Positions 29,442 to 38,730 of a stretch of DNA of 64,000 nt are shown here, in pieces. Each line of letters opens with the position of its first letter. Positions within the stretch are counted from its first letter, which is position 1. The position numbers and the translations under genes are program-made. The notes beneath the pieces are model-generated. The model did no database searches. It was not told the origin of the DNA and saw only the letters and a list, made by a program, of their open reading frames with translations. This DNA comes from Escherichia coli (GTDB taxonomy: Bacteria; Pseudomonadota; Gammaproteobacteria; Enterobacterales; Enterobacteriaceae). The DNA lies in assembly GCF_003334335.1 (NCBI RefSeq), contig NZ_QOWQ01000006.1; one strand, given 5' to 3'.

Positions 29442-31337
<1,896 letters not shown>

Positions 31338-31384
31338 AGGAAAGAACATTGCCCGGTCAGGATGGCCGGGCAAACAAGGCAGGA

Positions 31385-31699
31385 TTAAATCCCTGGCTGC
31401 AGAATACGGATATTCATCTCCAGCACGTCACCTTTTACGGCTTCGCTATACGCCTTCATGTGCGGGGTTTGCAGATGCGCTTCAAGATGCGCGATGCTTT
31501 CCCACTGCTCAATCATCACGATAGAATCCGGTGCCATAGACTGGAAACTCACGCCAGCTGCGCAATCCACCATTGGCGCATAGCCGTGGCAACCTTCTTC
31601 TTTCAGTACGGTTGGAACGATTTTAGCAAACTGATCCAATACCGCCTGACGGTGATGTTGACCAGGACGAGTACGGATTTCTGCGATTACGGTAAGCAT
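31385..31699 (-). CDS. ygiN: quinol monooxygenase YgiN (ABM domain)
   Basis: 104 aa; synteny with mdaB. Confidence 0.85.
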   Translation of the reverse strand: MLTVIAEIRTRPGQHHRQAVLDQFAKIVPTVLKEEGCHGYAPMVDCAAGVSFQSMAPDSIVMIEQWESIAHLEAHLQTPHMKAYSEAVKGDVLEMNIRILQPGI

Positions 31700-31729
31700 G
31701 GTTAACTCCTTCTAAAGCCTGAGCTCTAG

Positions 31730-32311
31730 TTAACCAAAAATTTCCACAAGATGCTTGCGATATTCTTCAGTATAGCGGGGAACATCAGGCATTTTTATCA
31801 CGTCATTAGCGATAAATGTCGGCAGCGGTTCCATACCGAGGAATTGGTTTGCTTTATGGAACGGCAGATACACACCGTCAACGCCAACGCCGTGGAAGAA
31901 CTGATCTTTTTCGGTGAAGGCTTCCATTGGTGCGTTCCAGGTCAGAGAAAGCATATATTTTTTGCCCTGTACCAGGCCGCCGGAACCGTATTTTTTCGAC
32001 GGATCTTTGCGGGTACGACCATCGCTGGCATACAGCGTCCCGTGACCTTCGGTGAATACATCATCAATGTATTTTTTCACTGTCCACGGCGCGCCCATCC
32101 ACCAGCCTGGCATCTGCCAGATCACCACATCAGCCCAGAGAAAGTTTTGTACTTCCGCTTTGACATCGTAGTCGCTGTCGGCGCGAACGATGCGGACATC
32201 ATGCCCAAGGTCGCGCAGTGTGCCATCCGCGACTTCGGTCAGGGTGTCGTTCAGTTGACCATTGGAGTGGGCGAATTTTTTCGCGCCGTTGATAATCAGG
32301 ATGTTGCTCAT
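31730..32311 (-). CDS. mdaB: NADPH:quinone oxidoreductase MdaB
   Basis: 193 aa flavodoxin-like protein. Confidence 0.9.
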   Translation of the reverse strand: MSNILIINGAKKFAHSNGQLNDTLTEVADGTLRDLGHDVRIVRADSDYDVKAEVQNFLWADVVIWQMPGWWMGAPWTVKKYIDDVFTEGHGTLYASDGRTRKDPSKKYGSGGLVQGKKYMLSLTWNAPMEAFTEKDQFFHGVGVDGVYLPFHKANQFLGMEPLPTFIANDVIKMPDVPRYTEEYRKHLVEIFG

Positions 32312-32629
32312 TTTTTAACCTCAAGGTGAGACGTTTGCCGACTATAGTACGTCACAGAGCGGTACGGTGAAATTAGCAAAATGTGCAAAGTCTTTTGCGA
32401 ATTTAGCAAAAGTCTGATCTTACTCTGACTCACCGATGCAGGATAAATATTTTCTGAAAATGACAATACTGATAGCCATTCCTCATAATTCTTACTCGCA
32501 CCGGAATAATTTACACGTTTGGTTCGGTTTTTTTGGGGATTGATAATATGGCTTTGAATAAGTAAAAGATGAAAGTATCAACGTGTCATGTTGATAATTA
32601 TAAATGGATTTTTATGAGCGTACTGATAT

Positions 32630-32962
32630 ATGTTAAAGCAGAAAATTAAAACAATATTTGAAGCATTGCTATATATAATGCTTACTTATTGGTTAATAGA
32701 TTCTTTTTTTGCTTTCAATAAGTATGACTGGATGCTTGAGTCGGGAGGAAATATTTGCAGTATACCTTCCGTTTCAGGCGAAGATCGTATATTGCAAGCA
32801 ATGATTGCAGCATTTTTTCTTCTTACGCCACTTATTATTCTTATCTTAAGAAAACTCTTTATGCGGGAAATGTTCGAGTTTTGGGTATATGTATTCTCGC
32901 TCGGTATTTGTCTGGTTTGTGGTTGGTGGCTTTTTTGGGGACGGTTTATATTTTGCTATTAG
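32630..32962 (+). CDS. ygiZ: small inner-membrane protein YgiZ
   Basis: 110 aa, multi-TM, AT-rich codon usage; synteny. Confidence 0.7.
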   Translation: MLKQKIKTIFEALLYIMLTYWLIDSFFAFNKYDWMLESGGNICSIPSVSGEDRILQAMIAAFFLLTPLIILILRKLFMREMFEFWVYVFSLGICLVCGWWLFWGRFIFCY

Positions 32963-33007
32963 TAAAATCTATGAGAGTCGTTTTAACGGCTCTCATAGAC
33001 AGAGAAG

Positions 33008-34357
33008 TTACCAGCTTACCTTCGCCTCAAATCCACCTTGTTCCGCATTCCCAAATTCAACATTCATGCCATGCAATTTGGCGATTCGCTGGACAATCGA
33101 TAGCCCAAGCCCGCTGCCGGTAGCGGTTTGTCCGGGTGGGCGATAGAAGCGTTCGCCAATTCGCGCCAGTGCCTCTGGTGTCACACCGGGGCCGTTATCC
33201 CTCACGATGAAATTATCAGCATTCAGCGTGACGTCTACCACGCTGCCCTGTGGACTGTAGCGCACGGCGTTATCCAGCAAATTTCGCACCAACAAACTTA
33301 GCAATAGCGGTTGCCCGGTGCGTTTGATGCTGTGGGCATTGAGTGTCAGTCGCACGTCAATTTTCGCCTGCTGCGCCGTGTGGTAAATATCCATCACCGA
33401 CGATTGCAGGAGATCTTCAAGCGGGATCTCCGCGACGTCCTGAAGGTTATCCAGTGAGTCCAGCCGCGATAGCGTGAGCAGTTGATCAACCAGACGAGTA
33501 GCGCGATCGATCCCGGAATGTAATTGGAGCAGTGCTTTTTTCCGCGCCTGCGGATCATCGTCAGAGAGCTGCGCAACTTCGGTTTGCACTTTCAGCGCCG
33601 TTAACGGGCTACGAAGTTCGTGAGCTGCGTCGGAGGTAAAGCGTCGTTCACGAACCATCATCGCATGTGTGCGGGCGAACAGTTGATTTAGCGACTCAAC
33701 CAGTGGCCGCACTTCGCTGGGTACGCCAGTCGCGTTTAGTGGTTTTTCCGAGTCAGGGTCACGCATACGTAGTGCCAGCGCCAGTTTGTTCAGCGGCGCG
33801 AGTTCACGACCCAGTAGTACCATCATGATGATTAACATAATCGGCAGTGCGACCAGCCACGGGATCAATTGCCCGGCAACAATCGCCAGCGCCATGTCTT
33901 CACGGTATTCCCATTCCTGGCCAACAACGATGCGATATTTGCCATCAGGTGAGGTCATCCAGACAAAACGCCAAGGATCGTCTTCACCGACCAGTTGCCC
34001 GTCAGCAAAACCTTCCCGTTGATAGCTATAGGGAATATCTTCTCCGTTATCGCCATCATTAAGGACCATTCTGCCGTCGTGGGTAAAGATGGCAAAGGTC
34101 AGCGCATCGTCATCAACATGACCGTGTTTTAATCTATTTGGCGTCTGTGCCATGCGATCCGCCGCGTTGATTTCGTTGAGATCGAGCGTACTTAACCGCT
34201 TGGCAAACAGCATCAGTTGGGTGTCGAACAATTCATCGACGTTATCCGTTGTTTGTTTCCAGGCGACAAAGCTGGAAAGCAGCCAGGTCACCGAGGCCAG
34301 AATTAAAAAGATTAGCGTCAGCCTGACGCGCAGACTAAGACGTTGGGTAAATTTCAT
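33008..34357 (-). CDS. qseC: two-component sensor histidine kinase QseC
   Basis: 449 aa with two TM segments, HAMP, H-box ([12 protein letters not shown]) and HATPase motifs. Confidence 0.9.
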
Positions 34358-35013
34358 TTCTCACCTAATGTGTAACCAATACCATGCACGGTACGAATAA
34401 AATCACTACCGAGTTTGCGTCGCAGATGATGCACATGCACTTCAACGGCATTACTGGTGACCTCTTCGTCCCAGGTATACAGTTTCTCTTCAATCAGTTT
34501 GCGCGGCAGTACCCGACCAGCGTTACGCATCAGTAATTCCAGCAGGGCAAATTCTTTTGGTTTCAGTGTTAAGGGTTCGCCAGCCAGCGTGGCGATACGT
34601 TTGCCGGGGTCGAGCATGACGTTACCGTGGCGCAGCTCGTTGCTGGCCTGGCCGTTGGTTCGGCGCATCAGAGCTTCCAGCCTGGCGGCGACTTCTATCA
34701 ACGCAAAAGGTTTACACAGATAATCGTCAGCTCCCAGACGCAGCCCTTCTACACGTTCCGCCAGCGCATCGCGCGCGGTCAGGATCAGTACCGGCTCACG
34801 CTGACCTTTTTCTCGCCATTCGCGCAAAATATCGCGACCATCCATGCCTGGTAAGGTTAAATCCAGGATCACCGCATCATAAGGTGCGCTATAAAGCGCC
34901 TCTTTTCCCTGACGACCTTGTGTAAACCAGTCGACGCTAAAACCCATTTTACTAAGGCCCGTTTTGATGCCGTCGCCAATCAGCATGTCATCTTCTATCA
35001 GTAAAATTCGCAT
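34354..35013 (-). CDS. qseB: OmpR-family response regulator QseB
   Basis: 219 aa starting MRILLIEDD; 4-bp overlap with qseC. Confidence 0.9.
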
Positions 35014-35164
35014 TTTTTCATCCCTGCGATAACCGTATTTGCTGCCAGTAAACCGTGTTGTAACGCGCTCTGTACAGCACTAAATTTTATTTTTTTCCCT
35101 TAAGAAGTTGTTAAGGACTATCTTGTTAAATGCTCGGAAACAGACATTAAAGGGAGTAATAAAC

Positions 35165-35557
35165 ATGAAAAAATTCGCAGCAGTAATCGCAGTAATGGCC
35201 CTGTGCAGCGCACCGGTGATGGCAGCAGAGCAGGGCGGTTTTTCTGGCCCATCGGCAACGCAAAGTCAGGCCGGAGGATTCCAGGGGCCGAACGGCAGCG
35301 TAACGACTGTAGAAAGCGCAAAATCCCTGCGTGACGACACCTGGGTAACCCTGCGCGGCAATATCGTTGAACGCATCTCTGACGATCTCTACGTGTTCAA
35401 AGATGCCAGCGGTACTATCAATGTTGATATCGACCACAAACGCTGGAACGGCGTGACGGTGACGCCGAAAGATACGGTTGAGATTCAGGGTGAAGTCGAT
35501 AAAGACTGGAATTCTGTTGAAATTGACGTCAAACAGATCCGCAAAGTAAATCCGTAA
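35165..35557 (+). CDS. ygiW: periplasmic OB-fold (BOF) stress protein YgiW
   Basis: 130 aa from ATG at 35165 with signal peptide; divergent from qseBC. Confidence 0.8.
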   Translation: MKKFAAVIAVMALCSAPVMAAEQGGFSGPSATQSQAGGFQGPNGSVTTVESAKSLRDDTWVTLRGNIVERISDDLYVFKDASGTINVDIDHKRWNGVTVTPKDTVEIQGEVDKDWNSVEIDVKQIRKVNP

Positions 35558-35609
35558 TTGTTACCGCTCCCGGGACGCGTTCCCGGGAATAATTTCGCAG
35601 GGAGGCAAA

Positions 35610-36092
35610 ATGACAAACCTGACACTGGATGTAAACATTATCGATTTCCCATCAATACCTGTGGCGATGTTGCCGCACCGCTGTAGCCCTGAATTGCTCA
35701 ACTACAGCGTGGCGAAATTTATCATGTGGCGTAAAGAGACGGGGCTTTCTCCTGTTAACCAAAGCCAGACTTTTGGCGTCGCCTGGGACGACCCTGCCAC
35801 CACCGCACCGGAAGCGTTTCGCTTTGATATCTGCGGCAGCGTTAGCGAACCGATTCCCGATAATCGTTATGGTGTGAGCAATGGTGAACTTACCGGTGGA
35901 CGTTATGCCGTGGCCCGCCACGTTGGCGAGCTGGACGATATTTCACACACGGTATGGGGCATCATTCGCCACTGGCTGCCTGCAAGCGGCGAGAAAATGC
36001 GTAAAGCACCGATTCTGTTTCACTACACCAATCTTGCCGGAGGGGTGACAGAGCAGCGACTGGAAACGGATGTTTATGTGCCGTTGGCGTGA
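35610..36092 (+). CDS. ygiV: GyrI-like effector-binding domain protein (putative transcriptional regulator)
   Basis: 160 aa; synteny next to mqsRA. Confidence 0.75.
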   Translation: MTNLTLDVNIIDFPSIPVAMLPHRCSPELLNYSVAKFIMWRKETGLSPVNQSQTFGVAWDDPATTAPEAFRFDICGSVSEPIPDNRYGVSNGELTGGRYAVARHVGELDDISHTVWGIIRHWLPASGEKMRKAPILFHYTNLAGGVTEQRLETDVYVPLA

Positions 36093-36222
36093 TGCCTGAC
36101 TCCAGCTTCCCTTATAAATTCCTGCTTCAAACTGGCGCTACTAATGCGCCACTTTCTTATATGGTCAATCACTTTCCTTAAAGAATACGTTTTGTGTGGT
36201 CACTATCTCCGTACATCTAACT

Positions 36223-36268
36223 AACCTTTTAGGTGCTTTTTCATTGCTGTAATTAACCTTTTAGGTTA
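36223..36268 (+). promoter_or_regulatory. mqsRA operator: two palindromes (AACCTTTTAGGT and TAACCTTTTAGGTTA)
   Basis: Perfect palindromes at 36223-36234 and 36254-36268, 30-75 bp upstream of the mqsR ATG. Confidence 0.75.
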
Positions 36269-36296
36269 TAACTAAAGTAACAGGGAGGCGGGGGTT

Positions 36297-36593
36297 ATGG
36301 AAAAACGCACACCACATACACGTTTGAGTCAGGTTAAAAAACTTGTCAATGCCGGGCAAGTTCGTACAACACGTAGTGCCCTGTTAAATGCAGATGAGTT
36401 AGGTTTGGATTTTGATGGTATGTGTAATGTTATCATTGGATTATCAGAGAGCGACTTTTATAAAAGCATGACCACCTACTCTGATCATACTATCTGGCAG
36501 GATGTTTACAGACCCAGGCTTGTTACAGGCCAGGTTTATCTTAAAATTACGGTAATTCATGACGTACTGATCGTCTCGTTTAAGGAGAAGTAA
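36297..36593 (+). CDS. mqsR: type II toxin MqsR (mRNA interferase)
   Basis: 98 aa starting MEKRTPHTRLSQVKKLV; toxin precedes antitoxin. Confidence 0.9.
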   Translation: MEKRTPHTRLSQVKKLVNAGQVRTTRSALLNADELGLDFDGMCNVIIGLSESDFYKSMTTYSDHTIWQDVYRPRLVTGQVYLKITVIHDVLIVSFKEK

Positions 36594-36594
36594 T

Positions 36595-36990
36595 ATGAAA
36601 TGTCCGGTTTGCCACCAGGGAGAAATGGTTTCTGGCATTAAAGATATTCCATACACCTTCCGTGGACGAAAAACAGTATTGAAAGGTATCCACGGTTTAT
36701 ATTGTGTCCATTGCGAAGAGAGCATCATGAATAAAGAAGAGTCAGATGCTTTCATGGCGCAAGTAAAGGCATTTCGGGCTTCGGTGAATGCCGAAACAGT
36801 GGCACCTGAATTTATAGTGAAGGTTCGAAAAAAGCTCTCTCTTACCCAAAAAGAGGCAAGCGAAATTTTTGGGGGAGGTGTAAATGCGTTTTCGCGTTAC
36901 GAAAAAGGCAATGCCCAACCTCATCCTTCCACAATCAAACTTTTACGTGTTCTGGATAAGCATCCAGAACTATTGAATGAAATCCGTTAA
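36595..36990 (+). CDS. mqsA: type II antitoxin / transcriptional regulator MqsA
   Basis: 131 aa with N-terminal zinc-binding CxxC...CxxC (MKCPVCHQGEM...YCVHCEES) and C-terminal HTH-XRE domain; starts 1 nt after the mqsR stop. Confidence 0.9.
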   Translation: MKCPVCHQGEMVSGIKDIPYTFRGRKTVLKGIHGLYCVHCEESIMNKEESDAFMAQVKAFRASVNAETVAPEFIVKVRKKLSLTQKEASEIFGGGVNAFSRYEKGNAQPHPSTIKLLRVLDKHPELLNEIR

Positions 36991-37122
36991 TTAATGGAAA
37001 AGCGGGGGCAACTCGCTTTTTTCTTTACCGGAGTGTGAGCCAAATCACTCGCGATAAGTTTGAGCGAACAATGCCACAGGCGTATTGTTGTTGGGCTTAT
37101 AATTTCTCCGGTAAGGAATACC

Positions 37123-38730
37123 ATGTATACGCGAAATTTATTATGGCTGGTCAGCCTGGTAAGTGCGGCTCCTCTCTACGCTGCTGACGTTCCCGCCAAC
37201 ACACCGCTCGCCCCGCAACAAGTCTTTCGTTACAACAATCATAGCGACCCAGGTACGCTCGACCCGCAAAAGGTGGAGGAGAATACTGCCGCGCAGATTG
37301 TGCTGGATCTGTTTGAAGGTCTGGTATGGATGGACGGTGAAGGCCAGGTGCAGCCCGCTCAGGCTGAACGCTGGGAGATACTGGACGGCGGCAAGCGCTA
37401 TATTTTCCATCTGCGTAGCGGTTTGCAGTGGTCCGACGGTCAGCCTCTGACGGCAGAGGATTTTGTCCTCGGCTGGCAGCGCGCGGTTGACCCGAAAACG
37501 GCAAGCCCTTTTGCTGGCTATCTGGCACAGGCGCACATTAACAATGCCGCAGCTATTGTTGCGGGTAAAGCAGATGTTACATCGCTGGGTGTCAAAGCGA
37601 CGGATGATCGTACTCTTGAAGTTACGCTTGAGCAGCCGGTTCCTTGGTTCACGACGATGCTCGCCTGGCCGACGCTGTTCCCGGTTCCTCATCATGTCAT
37701 TGCTAAACATGGCGATAGCTGGAGTAAGCCAGAGAACATGGTTTACAACGGTGCCTTTGTGCTTGATCAGTGGGTAGTTAACGAAAAGATTACTGCACGC
37801 AAAAATCCAAAGTACCGCGATGCGCAACATACAGTATTGCAACAGGTTGAGTATCTGGCGCTAGATAATTCGGTCACCGGCTATAACCGCTATCGCGCGG
37901 GAGAGGTCGATCTCACCTGGGTTCCGGCGCAGCAAATTCCCGCCATTGAAAAATCACTGCCTGGCGAGCTACGAATTATTCCGCGTCTGAACAGCGAATA
38001 TTACAACTTCAACCTTGAGAAACCGCCATTTAACGATGTGCGAGTGCGTCGGGCGCTATATCTTACGGTTGATCGACAGCTTATTGCGCAAAAGGTACTG
38101 GGGTTGAGAACGCCCGCAACCACGCTGACGCCGCCAGAGGTAAAAGGCTTTAGCGCGACGACGTTCGATGAACTGCAAAAGCCAATGAGTGAGCGCGTCG
38201 CGATGGCAAAAGCCTTGCTGAAACAGGCGGGATACGACGCCTCTCATCCGCTACGCTTTGAGCTGTTCTACAACAAGTACGATCTGCATGAAAAGACCGC
38301 GATAGCGTTGTCTTCCGAATGGAAAAAATGGCTGGGTGCACAGGTGACGCTGCGCACAATGGAGTGGAAAACCTATCTTGATGCCCGACGAGCCGGTGAT
38401 TTCATGCTGTCTCGGCAGTCGTGGGATGCGACGTACAATGATGCTTCCAGCTTCCTGAACACGCTCAAAAGCGATAGTGAAGAAAACGTCGGTCACTGGA
38501 AAAATGCGCAGTATGACGCCTTACTAAACCAGGCCACGCAGATCACTGATGCGACAAAGCGTAATGCGTTGTATCAGCAGGCAGAAGTGATCATCAACCA
38601 ACAGGCACCGCTGATTCCTATCTACTATCAGCCGTTAATCAAACTGCTTAAACCCTACGTTGGCGGTTTTCCGCTGCATAATCCCCAGGATTATGTCTAC
38701 AGCAAAGAGTTGTATATCAAGGCACATTGA
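37123..38730 (+). CDS. ygiS: periplasmic solute-binding protein, ABC family 5 (orphan)
   Basis: 535 aa from ATG at 37123 with signal peptide (MYTRNLLWLVSLVSAAPLYA); no adjacent permease genes. Confidence 0.8.
   Translation: MYTRNLLWLVSLVSAAPLYAADVPANTPLAPQQVFRYNNHSDPGTLDPQKVEENTAAQIVLDLFEGLVWMDGEGQVQPAQAERWEILDGGKRYIFHLRSGLQWSDGQPLTAEDFVLGWQRAVDPKTASPFAGYLAQAHINNAAAIVAGKADVTSLGVKATDDRTLEVTLEQPVPWFTTMLAWPTLFPVPHHVIAKHGDSWSKPENMVYNGAFVLDQWVVNEKITARKNPKYRDAQHTVLQQVEYLALDNSVTGYNRYRAGEVDLTWVPAQQIPAIEKSLPGELRIIPRLNSEYYNFNLEKPPFNDVRVRRALYLTVDRQLIAQKVLGLRTPATTLTPPEVKGFSATTFDELQKPMSERVAMAKALLKQAGYDASHPLRFELFYNKYDLHEKTAIALSSEWKKWLGAQVTLRTMEWKTYLDARRAGDFMLSRQSWDATYNDASSFLNTLKSDSEENVGHWKNAQYDALLNQATQITDATKRNALYQQAEVIINQQAPLIPIYYQPLIKLLKPYVGGFPLHNPQDYVYSKELYIKAH

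Follow-up and report, generated by a model that had tools for sequence, protein, structure and literature searches.

The window analyzed here, a 64,000-nucleotide (nt) stretch of Escherichia coli DNA, very probably carries the chromosomal qseBC-ygiW locus of this species, including the proposed mechanism in which the response regulator QseB, or its paralogue PmrA, acts through a direct repeat in the spacer between qseB and ygiW. The identities of the genes, the overlap between qseB and the sensor kinase gene qseC, the presence of the repeat, and the conservation and geometry of the repeat are established by this analysis. The repeat is most likely a class II activator site of the PhoB/PmrA type for the ygiW promoter, a reading that draws on conserved sequence and spacing and that we hold with fair confidence overall. 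An earlier reading of the window without database searches (the sequence-only reading) had recognized a qseBC two-component system with overlapping genes and a divergent ygiW. That finding is real, was correctly interpreted, and is already known; the comparative geometry of the repeat is a small refinement of the published circuit.

The genes, their spacer, and the elements on which the argument turns are as follows, in window positions.

33008-34357, minus strand: qseC, 449 amino acids (aa), sensor histidine kinase (from the list of open reading frames [ORFs])
34354-35013, minus strand: qseB, 219 aa, response regulator of the OmpR/PhoB family (from the ORF list)
35165-35557, plus strand: ygiW, 130 aa, periplasmic stress protein with an OB fold (BOF family)
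35014-35164: spacer of 151 bp between the divergent genes qseB and ygiW (direct reading)
35099-35115: direct repeat of the QseB/PmrA type, CTTAAG-AAGTT-GTTAAG on the plus strand and CTTAAC-AACTT-CTTAAG on the minus strand
35126-35131, plus strand: TTAAAT, putative -10 element of a QseB-dependent ygiW promoter, exactly 10 nt downstream of the repeat

The shared control region, put at about 150 bp in the sequence-only reading, is the 151-bp spacer, with ygiW diverging from qseB as described there. The arrangement had been called a known one, and the RefSeq annotation of E. coli is indeed identical: of 5426 complete E. coli genomes, 5425 contain the 3.5-kb stretch with the same gene annotation. 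The orientation of the window is opposite to that of the E. coli K-12 MG1655 chromosome (MG1655 coordinate = 3169828 + (35013 - window coordinate)), and the two differ by 4 nt in 7.5 kb. The assignment to QseB and QseC was borne out by protein searches, in which all three proteins scored above curated NCBIfam cutoffs.

The direct repeat in the qseB-ygiW spacer

A search of the spacer for direct-repeat regulator sites, as the sequence-only reading had proposed, was positive. An exact CTTAA-N6-CTTAA repeat lies at 35100-35115 on the qseB strand and is the sole exact match in the 64 kb, where 0.13 would be expected. The same repeat has been published as the QseB site of Aggregatibacter and put forward as the PmrA/QseB site of the qseBC promoter in E. 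coli (PMC5053249). The repeat is bound by QseB of Aggregatibacter actinomycetemcomitans, and the same review describes it as identical to the PmrA consensus and attributes its proposal as a PmrA site to Guckes et al. (2013) (PMC5053249). Against the consensus YTTAAK-N5-YTTAAK, the repeat in the window has one mismatch on either strand. Its half-sites share a TTAA core and lie 11 bp apart, and the whole is a near-palindrome: the half-site CTTAAG is palindromic, and the box forms a 9-nt near-inverted repeat. In the literature, the qseBC promoter is controlled by both PmrA and QseB, and PmrA binds tandem half-sites head to tail over the -35 element.

A scan with one genome per species yielded 80 related loci, or 81 with the window. 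The ygiW gene is divergent from qseB in the Enterobacterales, is codirectional with and upstream of qseB in the Pasteurellaceae, as published, and is absent from the qseBC neighborhood in Serratia, Rahnella, and some others. The loci with a divergent ygiW number 44, window included, and all belong to the Enterobacterales. Every one of these spacers contains exactly one TTAA-N7-TTAA box, always in the same orientation (CTTAAC-N5-CTTAAx toward qseB). Across the 44 loci, the columns of the repeat are invariant, each with an information content of about 2 bits; for most flanking columns the value is close to zero.

The conservation extends to the spacing on the ygiW side, where a hexamer of the form T(T/G)(T/A)A(A/C)T is separated from the box by exactly 10 nt at all 44 loci. 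In the ygiW-qseBC promoters of the Pasteurellaceae, the order box-10 nt-TTTAAT precedes ygiW, and in Serratia and Rahnella the box stands directly before qseB, followed after 10 nt by TGTAAT or, in Rahnella, TATAAT. When applied to Aggregatibacter segnis, this geometry predicts a transcription start at -50 from the ygiW ATG, within 3 nt of the QseB-dependent start mapped at -53 in A. actinomycetemcomitans, where the repeats flank the -35 element (PMC5053249). Because the box and the hexamer at 10 nt are retained at 44 loci and in the outgroup promoters, we favor an activator site for ygiW, and TTAAAT (35126-35131) is the probable -10 element of a QseB-dependent ygiW promoter. A dimer of phosphorylated QseB, or of its paralogue PmrA, would bind the repeat head to tail and replace the -35 element, as PhoB and PmrA do, and would recruit RNA polymerase to the ygiW promoter. 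Positive autoregulation of qseBC, reported from a distal promoter, may likewise depend on this repeat. In Salmonella, ygiW is activated 355-fold by PreA, the QseB of that organism (PMC2653508), and the Citrobacter rodentium ygiW promoter, combined with QseBC, works as a sensor (literature).

The hexamer on the ygiW side also fits YTTAAK and was considered as a third QseB half-site. It was rejected since its distance from the second half-site, 16 bp start to start, is out of helical phase and since its equivalent in Rahnella is TATAAT.

Promoters on the two sides of the repeat and alternative readings

Transcription starts mapped in relatives, and the elements of the qseBC promoters, place the repeat among the following features.

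35135 (primary) and 35141 (secondary), plus strand: ygiW start cluster, mapped from Shigella flexneri M90T by coordinates (PMC7132871)
35090/35091, minus strand: published QseB-regulated distal qseBC start, -77/-78 in enterohemorrhagic E. coli (EHEC) (PMC5053249, PMC2653508)
35089-35084, minus strand: TAAAAT, -10-like, directly downstream of the distal start and 9 nt from the box
35047-35076, minus strand: proximal (basal) qseBC promoter, with -35 TGTACA at 35076-35071, an 18-nt spacer, and -10 TTTACT at 35052-35047

The ygiW starts are taken from Table S2 of the M90T study, which gives 73727 (primary) and 73733 (secondary) for an ATG at 73757 (PMC7132871); further secondary starts in that table correspond to window positions 35128 and 35115. 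The spacer sequence printed for M90T is that of the window except at 35081 (C in the window, T in M90T). The two principal starts lie 20 to 26 nt downstream of the box and fall on either side of 35137-35138, the start that the hexamer predicts, without coinciding with it. A generic sigma-70 promoter scan gave no hit in the spacer; the two hits that it gave outside are at chance level. The genome-wide start tables of Kim 2012, Ettwiller 2016, and Romero 2014 contain no entry for these genes, and that of Salmonella SL1344 contains none for ygiW.

On the qseB side, the start of the proximal promoter at 35041/35040 corresponds to -28/-27 from the qseB ATG. The start at -28 (window 35041) is primary in Shigella M90T (PMC7132871), the Salmonella SL1344 start table places it 27 nt from the ATG, and the proximal start in EHEC is at -27 (PMC5053249, PMC2653508). 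The M90T and SL1344 starts thus define the proximal, basal qseBC promoter, of which CTGTACA and GGTTTACTG are conserved across the Enterobacteriaceae. For EHEC, the review gives qseBC starts at -27 and -77 and has the repeat overlapping the -10 region of the distal, QseB-regulated promoter (PMC5053249).

Several observations weigh against the repeat being a class II activator site for ygiW that also serves qseBC autoregulation. The M90T ygiW starts lie 4 nt (35135) and 10 nt (35141) past the hexamer, where 6 to 8 nt would be expected, and A at hexamer position 2, normally the most conserved base of a sigma-70 -10 element, is found at none of the 44 loci. Primer extension in Salmonella places the starts elsewhere, at -161 for ygiW and -423 for preA (PMC2653508). 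On the qseBC side, the repeat spans -10 to -25 of the distal start at -77/-78, a placement more typical of repression, and no distal qseB start appears in the Shigella or Salmonella genome-wide sets, neither of which was collected under conditions chosen to activate QseB. Finally, the DNase footprints from EHEC are summarized under another consensus, CAATTACGAATTA (PMC5053249).

Part of this evidence could be accommodated if the repeat activated ygiW only and served as an operator repressing the distal qseBC promoter by overlapping its -10 region, with positive autoregulation of qseBC exerted from other QseB sites, whose reported footprints cover -409 to -423 and the vicinity of the starts. 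The position of the repeat relative to 35090/35091 and the different consensus of the EHEC footprints speak for this division of labor, and a -10-like element at the corresponding spacing is found at 15 of 44 loci on the qseB side, compared with 44 of 44 on the ygiW side. In Serratia and Rahnella, however, the box with its hexamer at 10 nt stands directly before qseB, so boxes of the QseB family drive qseB elsewhere, and both the review (PMC5053249) and Guckes et al. credit the repeat with activation of qseBC by PmrA/QseB. We therefore regard an operator role as somewhat unlikely. The near-symmetry of the box allows another arrangement, in which a single pseudosymmetric repeat is a shared site replacing the -35 elements of two back-to-back class II promoters: a universally conserved ygiW promoter (PygiW) and a mirror qseBC promoter, lineage specific to the Enterobacteriaceae, with TAAAAT (35089-35084) as its -10 element and a QseB-activated start near -64 to -66 instead of -77/-78. 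The palindromic half-site CTTAAG and the inverted repeat spanning the whole box are in keeping with such a design. So is the hexamer 9 nt from the box, which reads TAAAAT here and GAnnnT in relatives and occurs in Escherichia, Citrobacter, Kluyvera, Pluralibacter, and Kosakonia; the 15 loci with a comparable hexamer (A at position 2, T at position 6) belong mostly to the Enterobacteriaceae sensu stricto. Yet the spacing is 9 nt rather than the canonical 10, the hexamer is absent from Erwinia, Pantoea, Pectobacterium, Hafnia, and others, and an UP-like element of PygiW would account for the A/T tract equally well. The published primer extension start lies about 12 nt away (PMC5053249), moreover, and a matching start is missing from the Shigella and Salmonella data sets. 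A mirror promoter is thus, in our judgment, unlikely. If it were real, one head-to-tail dimer, bound in either orientation, would split transcription between a stress protein and its own regulator, and the QseB-induced qseBC start would need to be remapped to about -65.

A different kind of alternative concerns the protein rather than the geometry: in E. coli the repeat might be primarily a site for PmrA (BasR), at which QseB acts weakly or indirectly. The match to the PmrA consensus with a single mismatch on either strand would suit PmrA, which according to the literature binds the qseBC promoter directly, and the Fe3+ surge needs both regulators. On the other hand, the identical repeat is a demonstrated QseB site in A. 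actinomycetemcomitans, an organism without PmrAB (PMC5053249), and the box is conserved beside qseB or ygiW in the Pasteurellaceae. The two regulators are also close paralogues, QseB itself scoring 250 bits on the PmrA model. A repeat primarily for PmrA therefore appears quite improbable, and the class II activator site for ygiW, occupied by QseB or its paralogue, remains our preferred reading.

Proteins, gene junctions, and transcript ends

QseB matched the NCBIfam equivalog model NF007663 with 468.1 bits (cutoff, 345) over residues 1 to 218 of the 219-position model; the PmrA model was next best at 250 bits, under its cutoff of 330. The receiver residues are in place, namely, Asp51, which is cited as essential (PMC5053249), and Lys101 within YLCKPF. 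The closest solved relative is BasR/PmrA (PDB 4S04 and 8JO2; 183 bits). Phosphorylation-dependent promoter binding by QseB is described in the literature (PMC5053249). The one coding difference from MG1655 lies in this gene: at window position 34506 (qseB codon 170), the base is G, giving CCG and Pro170 on the coding strand, whereas MG1655 has A, giving TCG and Ser170. Residue 170 falls within the winged-helix DNA-binding domain. Judging from alignment, Ser170 of the K-12 reference appears to be the unusual allele, since proline is shared with other Enterobacteriaceae and is the residue of those enterobacterial orthologues that resemble E. coli QseB most closely (sequences with RVLPR).

QseC scored 852.5 bits against NF007664 (cutoff, 475) and has the Pfam domains 2CSK_N, HAMP (182 to 231), HisKA (237 to 301), and HATPase_c (349 to 445), with the phospho-acceptor His246 in HisKA. 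Hydrophobic segments at about residues 13 to 33 and 159 to 185 enclose a periplasmic domain, which includes the acidic motif EYRED at residues 150 to 154. The corresponding motif in A. actinomycetemcomitans is EYRDD, and its role has been described (PMC4660874, PMC5053249). The PDB entries 3JZ3 and 2KSE, both titled "Sensor protein qseC," match QseC, and the PDB matches of QseC and YgiW have E values of 1e-70 to 1e-135. The response of QseC to epinephrine, norepinephrine, and AI-3 and its phosphatase activity on QseB are known from the literature; in Salmonella, the ligand response is disputed (PMC2653508).

The description of the divergent gene product as a periplasmic OB-fold stress protein agrees with a score of 219.9 bits on TIGR00156 (cutoff, 108), with a signal peptide, and with PDB 1NNX. 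Positions 35165-35224 encode the signal peptide MKKFAAVIAVMALCSAPVMA (N terminus by translation, MKKFAAVIAVMALCSAPVMA/AEQ), and 1NNX, entitled "Protein ygiW," spans residues 22 to 130, which is the mature protein. The gene starts at the ATG at 35165, preceded by the Shine-Dalgarno sequence GGGAG at 35152-35156; the TTG at 35108, given as its start in the mechanical ORF list, was rejected because RefSeq and all orthologue alignments begin at the ATG. Around the divergent start codons, positions 35009-35021 and 35165-35177 are 92% complementary over 13 nt (CGCATTTTTTCAT and ATGAAAAAATTCG). Both genes begin ATG-(A/C)(A/G)A-A(A/T)T-TT, and the complementarity is probably coincidental, reflecting A/T-rich codon usage after the start.

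The junction of qseB and qseC and the downstream end of the operon carry the following features.

34354-34357, minus strand: overlap of qseB stop and qseC start (TCAT on the plus strand, ATGA on the coding strand)
34366-34360, minus strand: AGGTGAG, Shine-Dalgarno-like motif for qseC within the 3' end of qseB (context, TTAGGTGAGAAATGA)
32968-32999: hairpin (stem, 14 bp) in the gap between convergent qseC and ygiZ

The 4-nt, ATGA-type overlap of regulator and kinase genes noted in the sequence-only reading is exact to the base: the qseC ATG occupies 34357-34355, and the qseB TGA occupies 34356-34354, so that exactly 4 bases are shared. Four-base overlaps at the qseB stop occur at 53 of the 81 loci (41 ATGA, 10 GTGA, and 2 TTGA). 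We infer that AGGTGAG acts as the Shine-Dalgarno motif of qseC. The genes qseB and qseC form one operon. Given the ATGA overlap and this motif inside the end of qseB, ribosomes that terminate on qseB could reinitiate at qseC, which would couple the translation of the two genes. The hairpin at 32968-32999 folds with -18.1 kcal/mol (z, -4.5) on the qseC strand, where it is followed by AUUUUA, and with -21.3 kcal/mol (z, -5.7) on the plus strand. This hairpin probably terminates qseBC transcription and may be bidirectional. A hairpin in the ygiW-ygiV spacer (35552-35612) was rejected as a terminator, its z score of -1.1 being no better than that of shuffled sequence and a T run being absent. That no convincing terminator separates ygiW from ygiV fits the cotranscription of ygiW with STM3175 (ygiV) in Salmonella (PMC2653508). 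A search of 31000-38000 against Rfam at an E value of ≤1 returned zero RNA families.

Known systems, neighboring genes, and significance

The locus agrees with qseBC and ygiW of E. coli K-12 and EHEC (b3024 to b3026) in how the genes are ordered and oriented, in the 4-nt overlap, and in the length of the spacer (151 bp); both published starts (-27 and -77/-78) as well as the CTTAA-N6-CTTAA repeat have exact counterparts in the window (PMC5053249). There is no structural difference from MG1655. Salmonella enterica shows the same divergence of preAB (qseBC) from ygiW (visP)-STM3175, and PreA/QseB strongly activates both ygiW-STM3175 and its own operon (PMC2653508). The A. actinomycetemcomitans and Haemophilus ygiW-qseBC loci comprise the same three genes and the same QseB site, 10 nt from TTTAAT, but there ygiW is cotranscribed upstream of qseBC with an attenuator in between. 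In the window, ygiW is on the opposite strand, and a single box therefore faces two promoters. PmrA/PmrB (BasRS) and the PhoB pho box likewise have hexamer half-sites in tandem, spaced by 11 bp, at which a head-to-tail dimer binds in place of the -35 element or overlapping it. PmrA/PmrB differs in its cognate kinase and signals, and the box in the window is one mismatch off the PmrA consensus. Cross talk among PmrB, QseB, and PmrA at the qseBC promoter is documented in the literature.

The sequence-only reading had further flagged the spacer as the likely regulatory hub of the neighborhood. This holds for qseBC and for ygiW(-ygiV) but is unsupported for the other neighbors, as the box is found only in the qseB-ygiW spacer. 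Local control does have a precedent in the Salmonella PreA (QseB) regulon, in which preAB, ygiW-STM3175 (ygiV), and mdaB-ygiN are activated (PMC2653508). In Salmonella, however, ygiZ is lacking between the kinase gene and the PreA-activated mdaB-ygiN, whereas here ygiZ intervenes, and no comparable QseB/PmrA box was found upstream of mdaB or ygiZ (32312-32629). The only other consensus-grade PmrA site in the 64 kb, at 19554-19570 on the minus strand, is far outside the locus. This sequence, TTTAAGTTTTACTTAAT, matches YTTAAK-N5-YTTAAK perfectly and lies in an AT-rich spacer 127 nt upstream of a 183-aa ORF (18876-19427, minus strand). Judged by its location on the MG1655 map, this ORF is probably ygiL, a fimbrial gene. 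The site could have arisen by chance or could be a target of PmrA/QseB.

Other features were noted in the surroundings. In the divergent mdaB-ygiZ spacer, at 32370-32420, the sequence (A/T)TTAGCAAAA occurs twice at a distance of about 30 bp, on either side of a small palindrome, GCAAAGTCTTTTGC; these repeats do not resemble the QseB box and could be a regulator site for mdaB. The toxin-antitoxin genes mqsR (36297-36593) and mqsA (36595-36990), with a gap of 1 nt between the mqsR stop and the mqsA start, lie about 0.7 kb past ygiW-ygiV on the same strand. MqsR has reportedly been linked to qseBC expression. Some natural isolates carry insertion sequences (IS) at the locus: an IS3-family element splits qseB in 1332KP (positions 1955-3927 of locus L084), IS1 lies inside ygiZ in enterotoxigenic E. 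coli (ETEC) H10407 and in SEC470 (positions 326-1340 of locus L083), and IS3-family/IS2 transposases are listed under the match in strains YJ6 and ETEC6.

QseBC, whose most strongly induced target is ygiW (visP), is a much-studied signaling system of virulence and polymyxin tolerance; correct recognition of the locus is therefore of help to annotation. The locus adds no new biology. One loose end is the strict order of box, 10 nt, and hexamer on the ygiW side, set against a published distal qseBC start that places the box over the -10 region of that promoter; the repeat may activate or repress the distal promoter or be part of a mirror promoter. Resolving this mismatch in geometry would refine a known autoregulatory circuit rather than open a new question.

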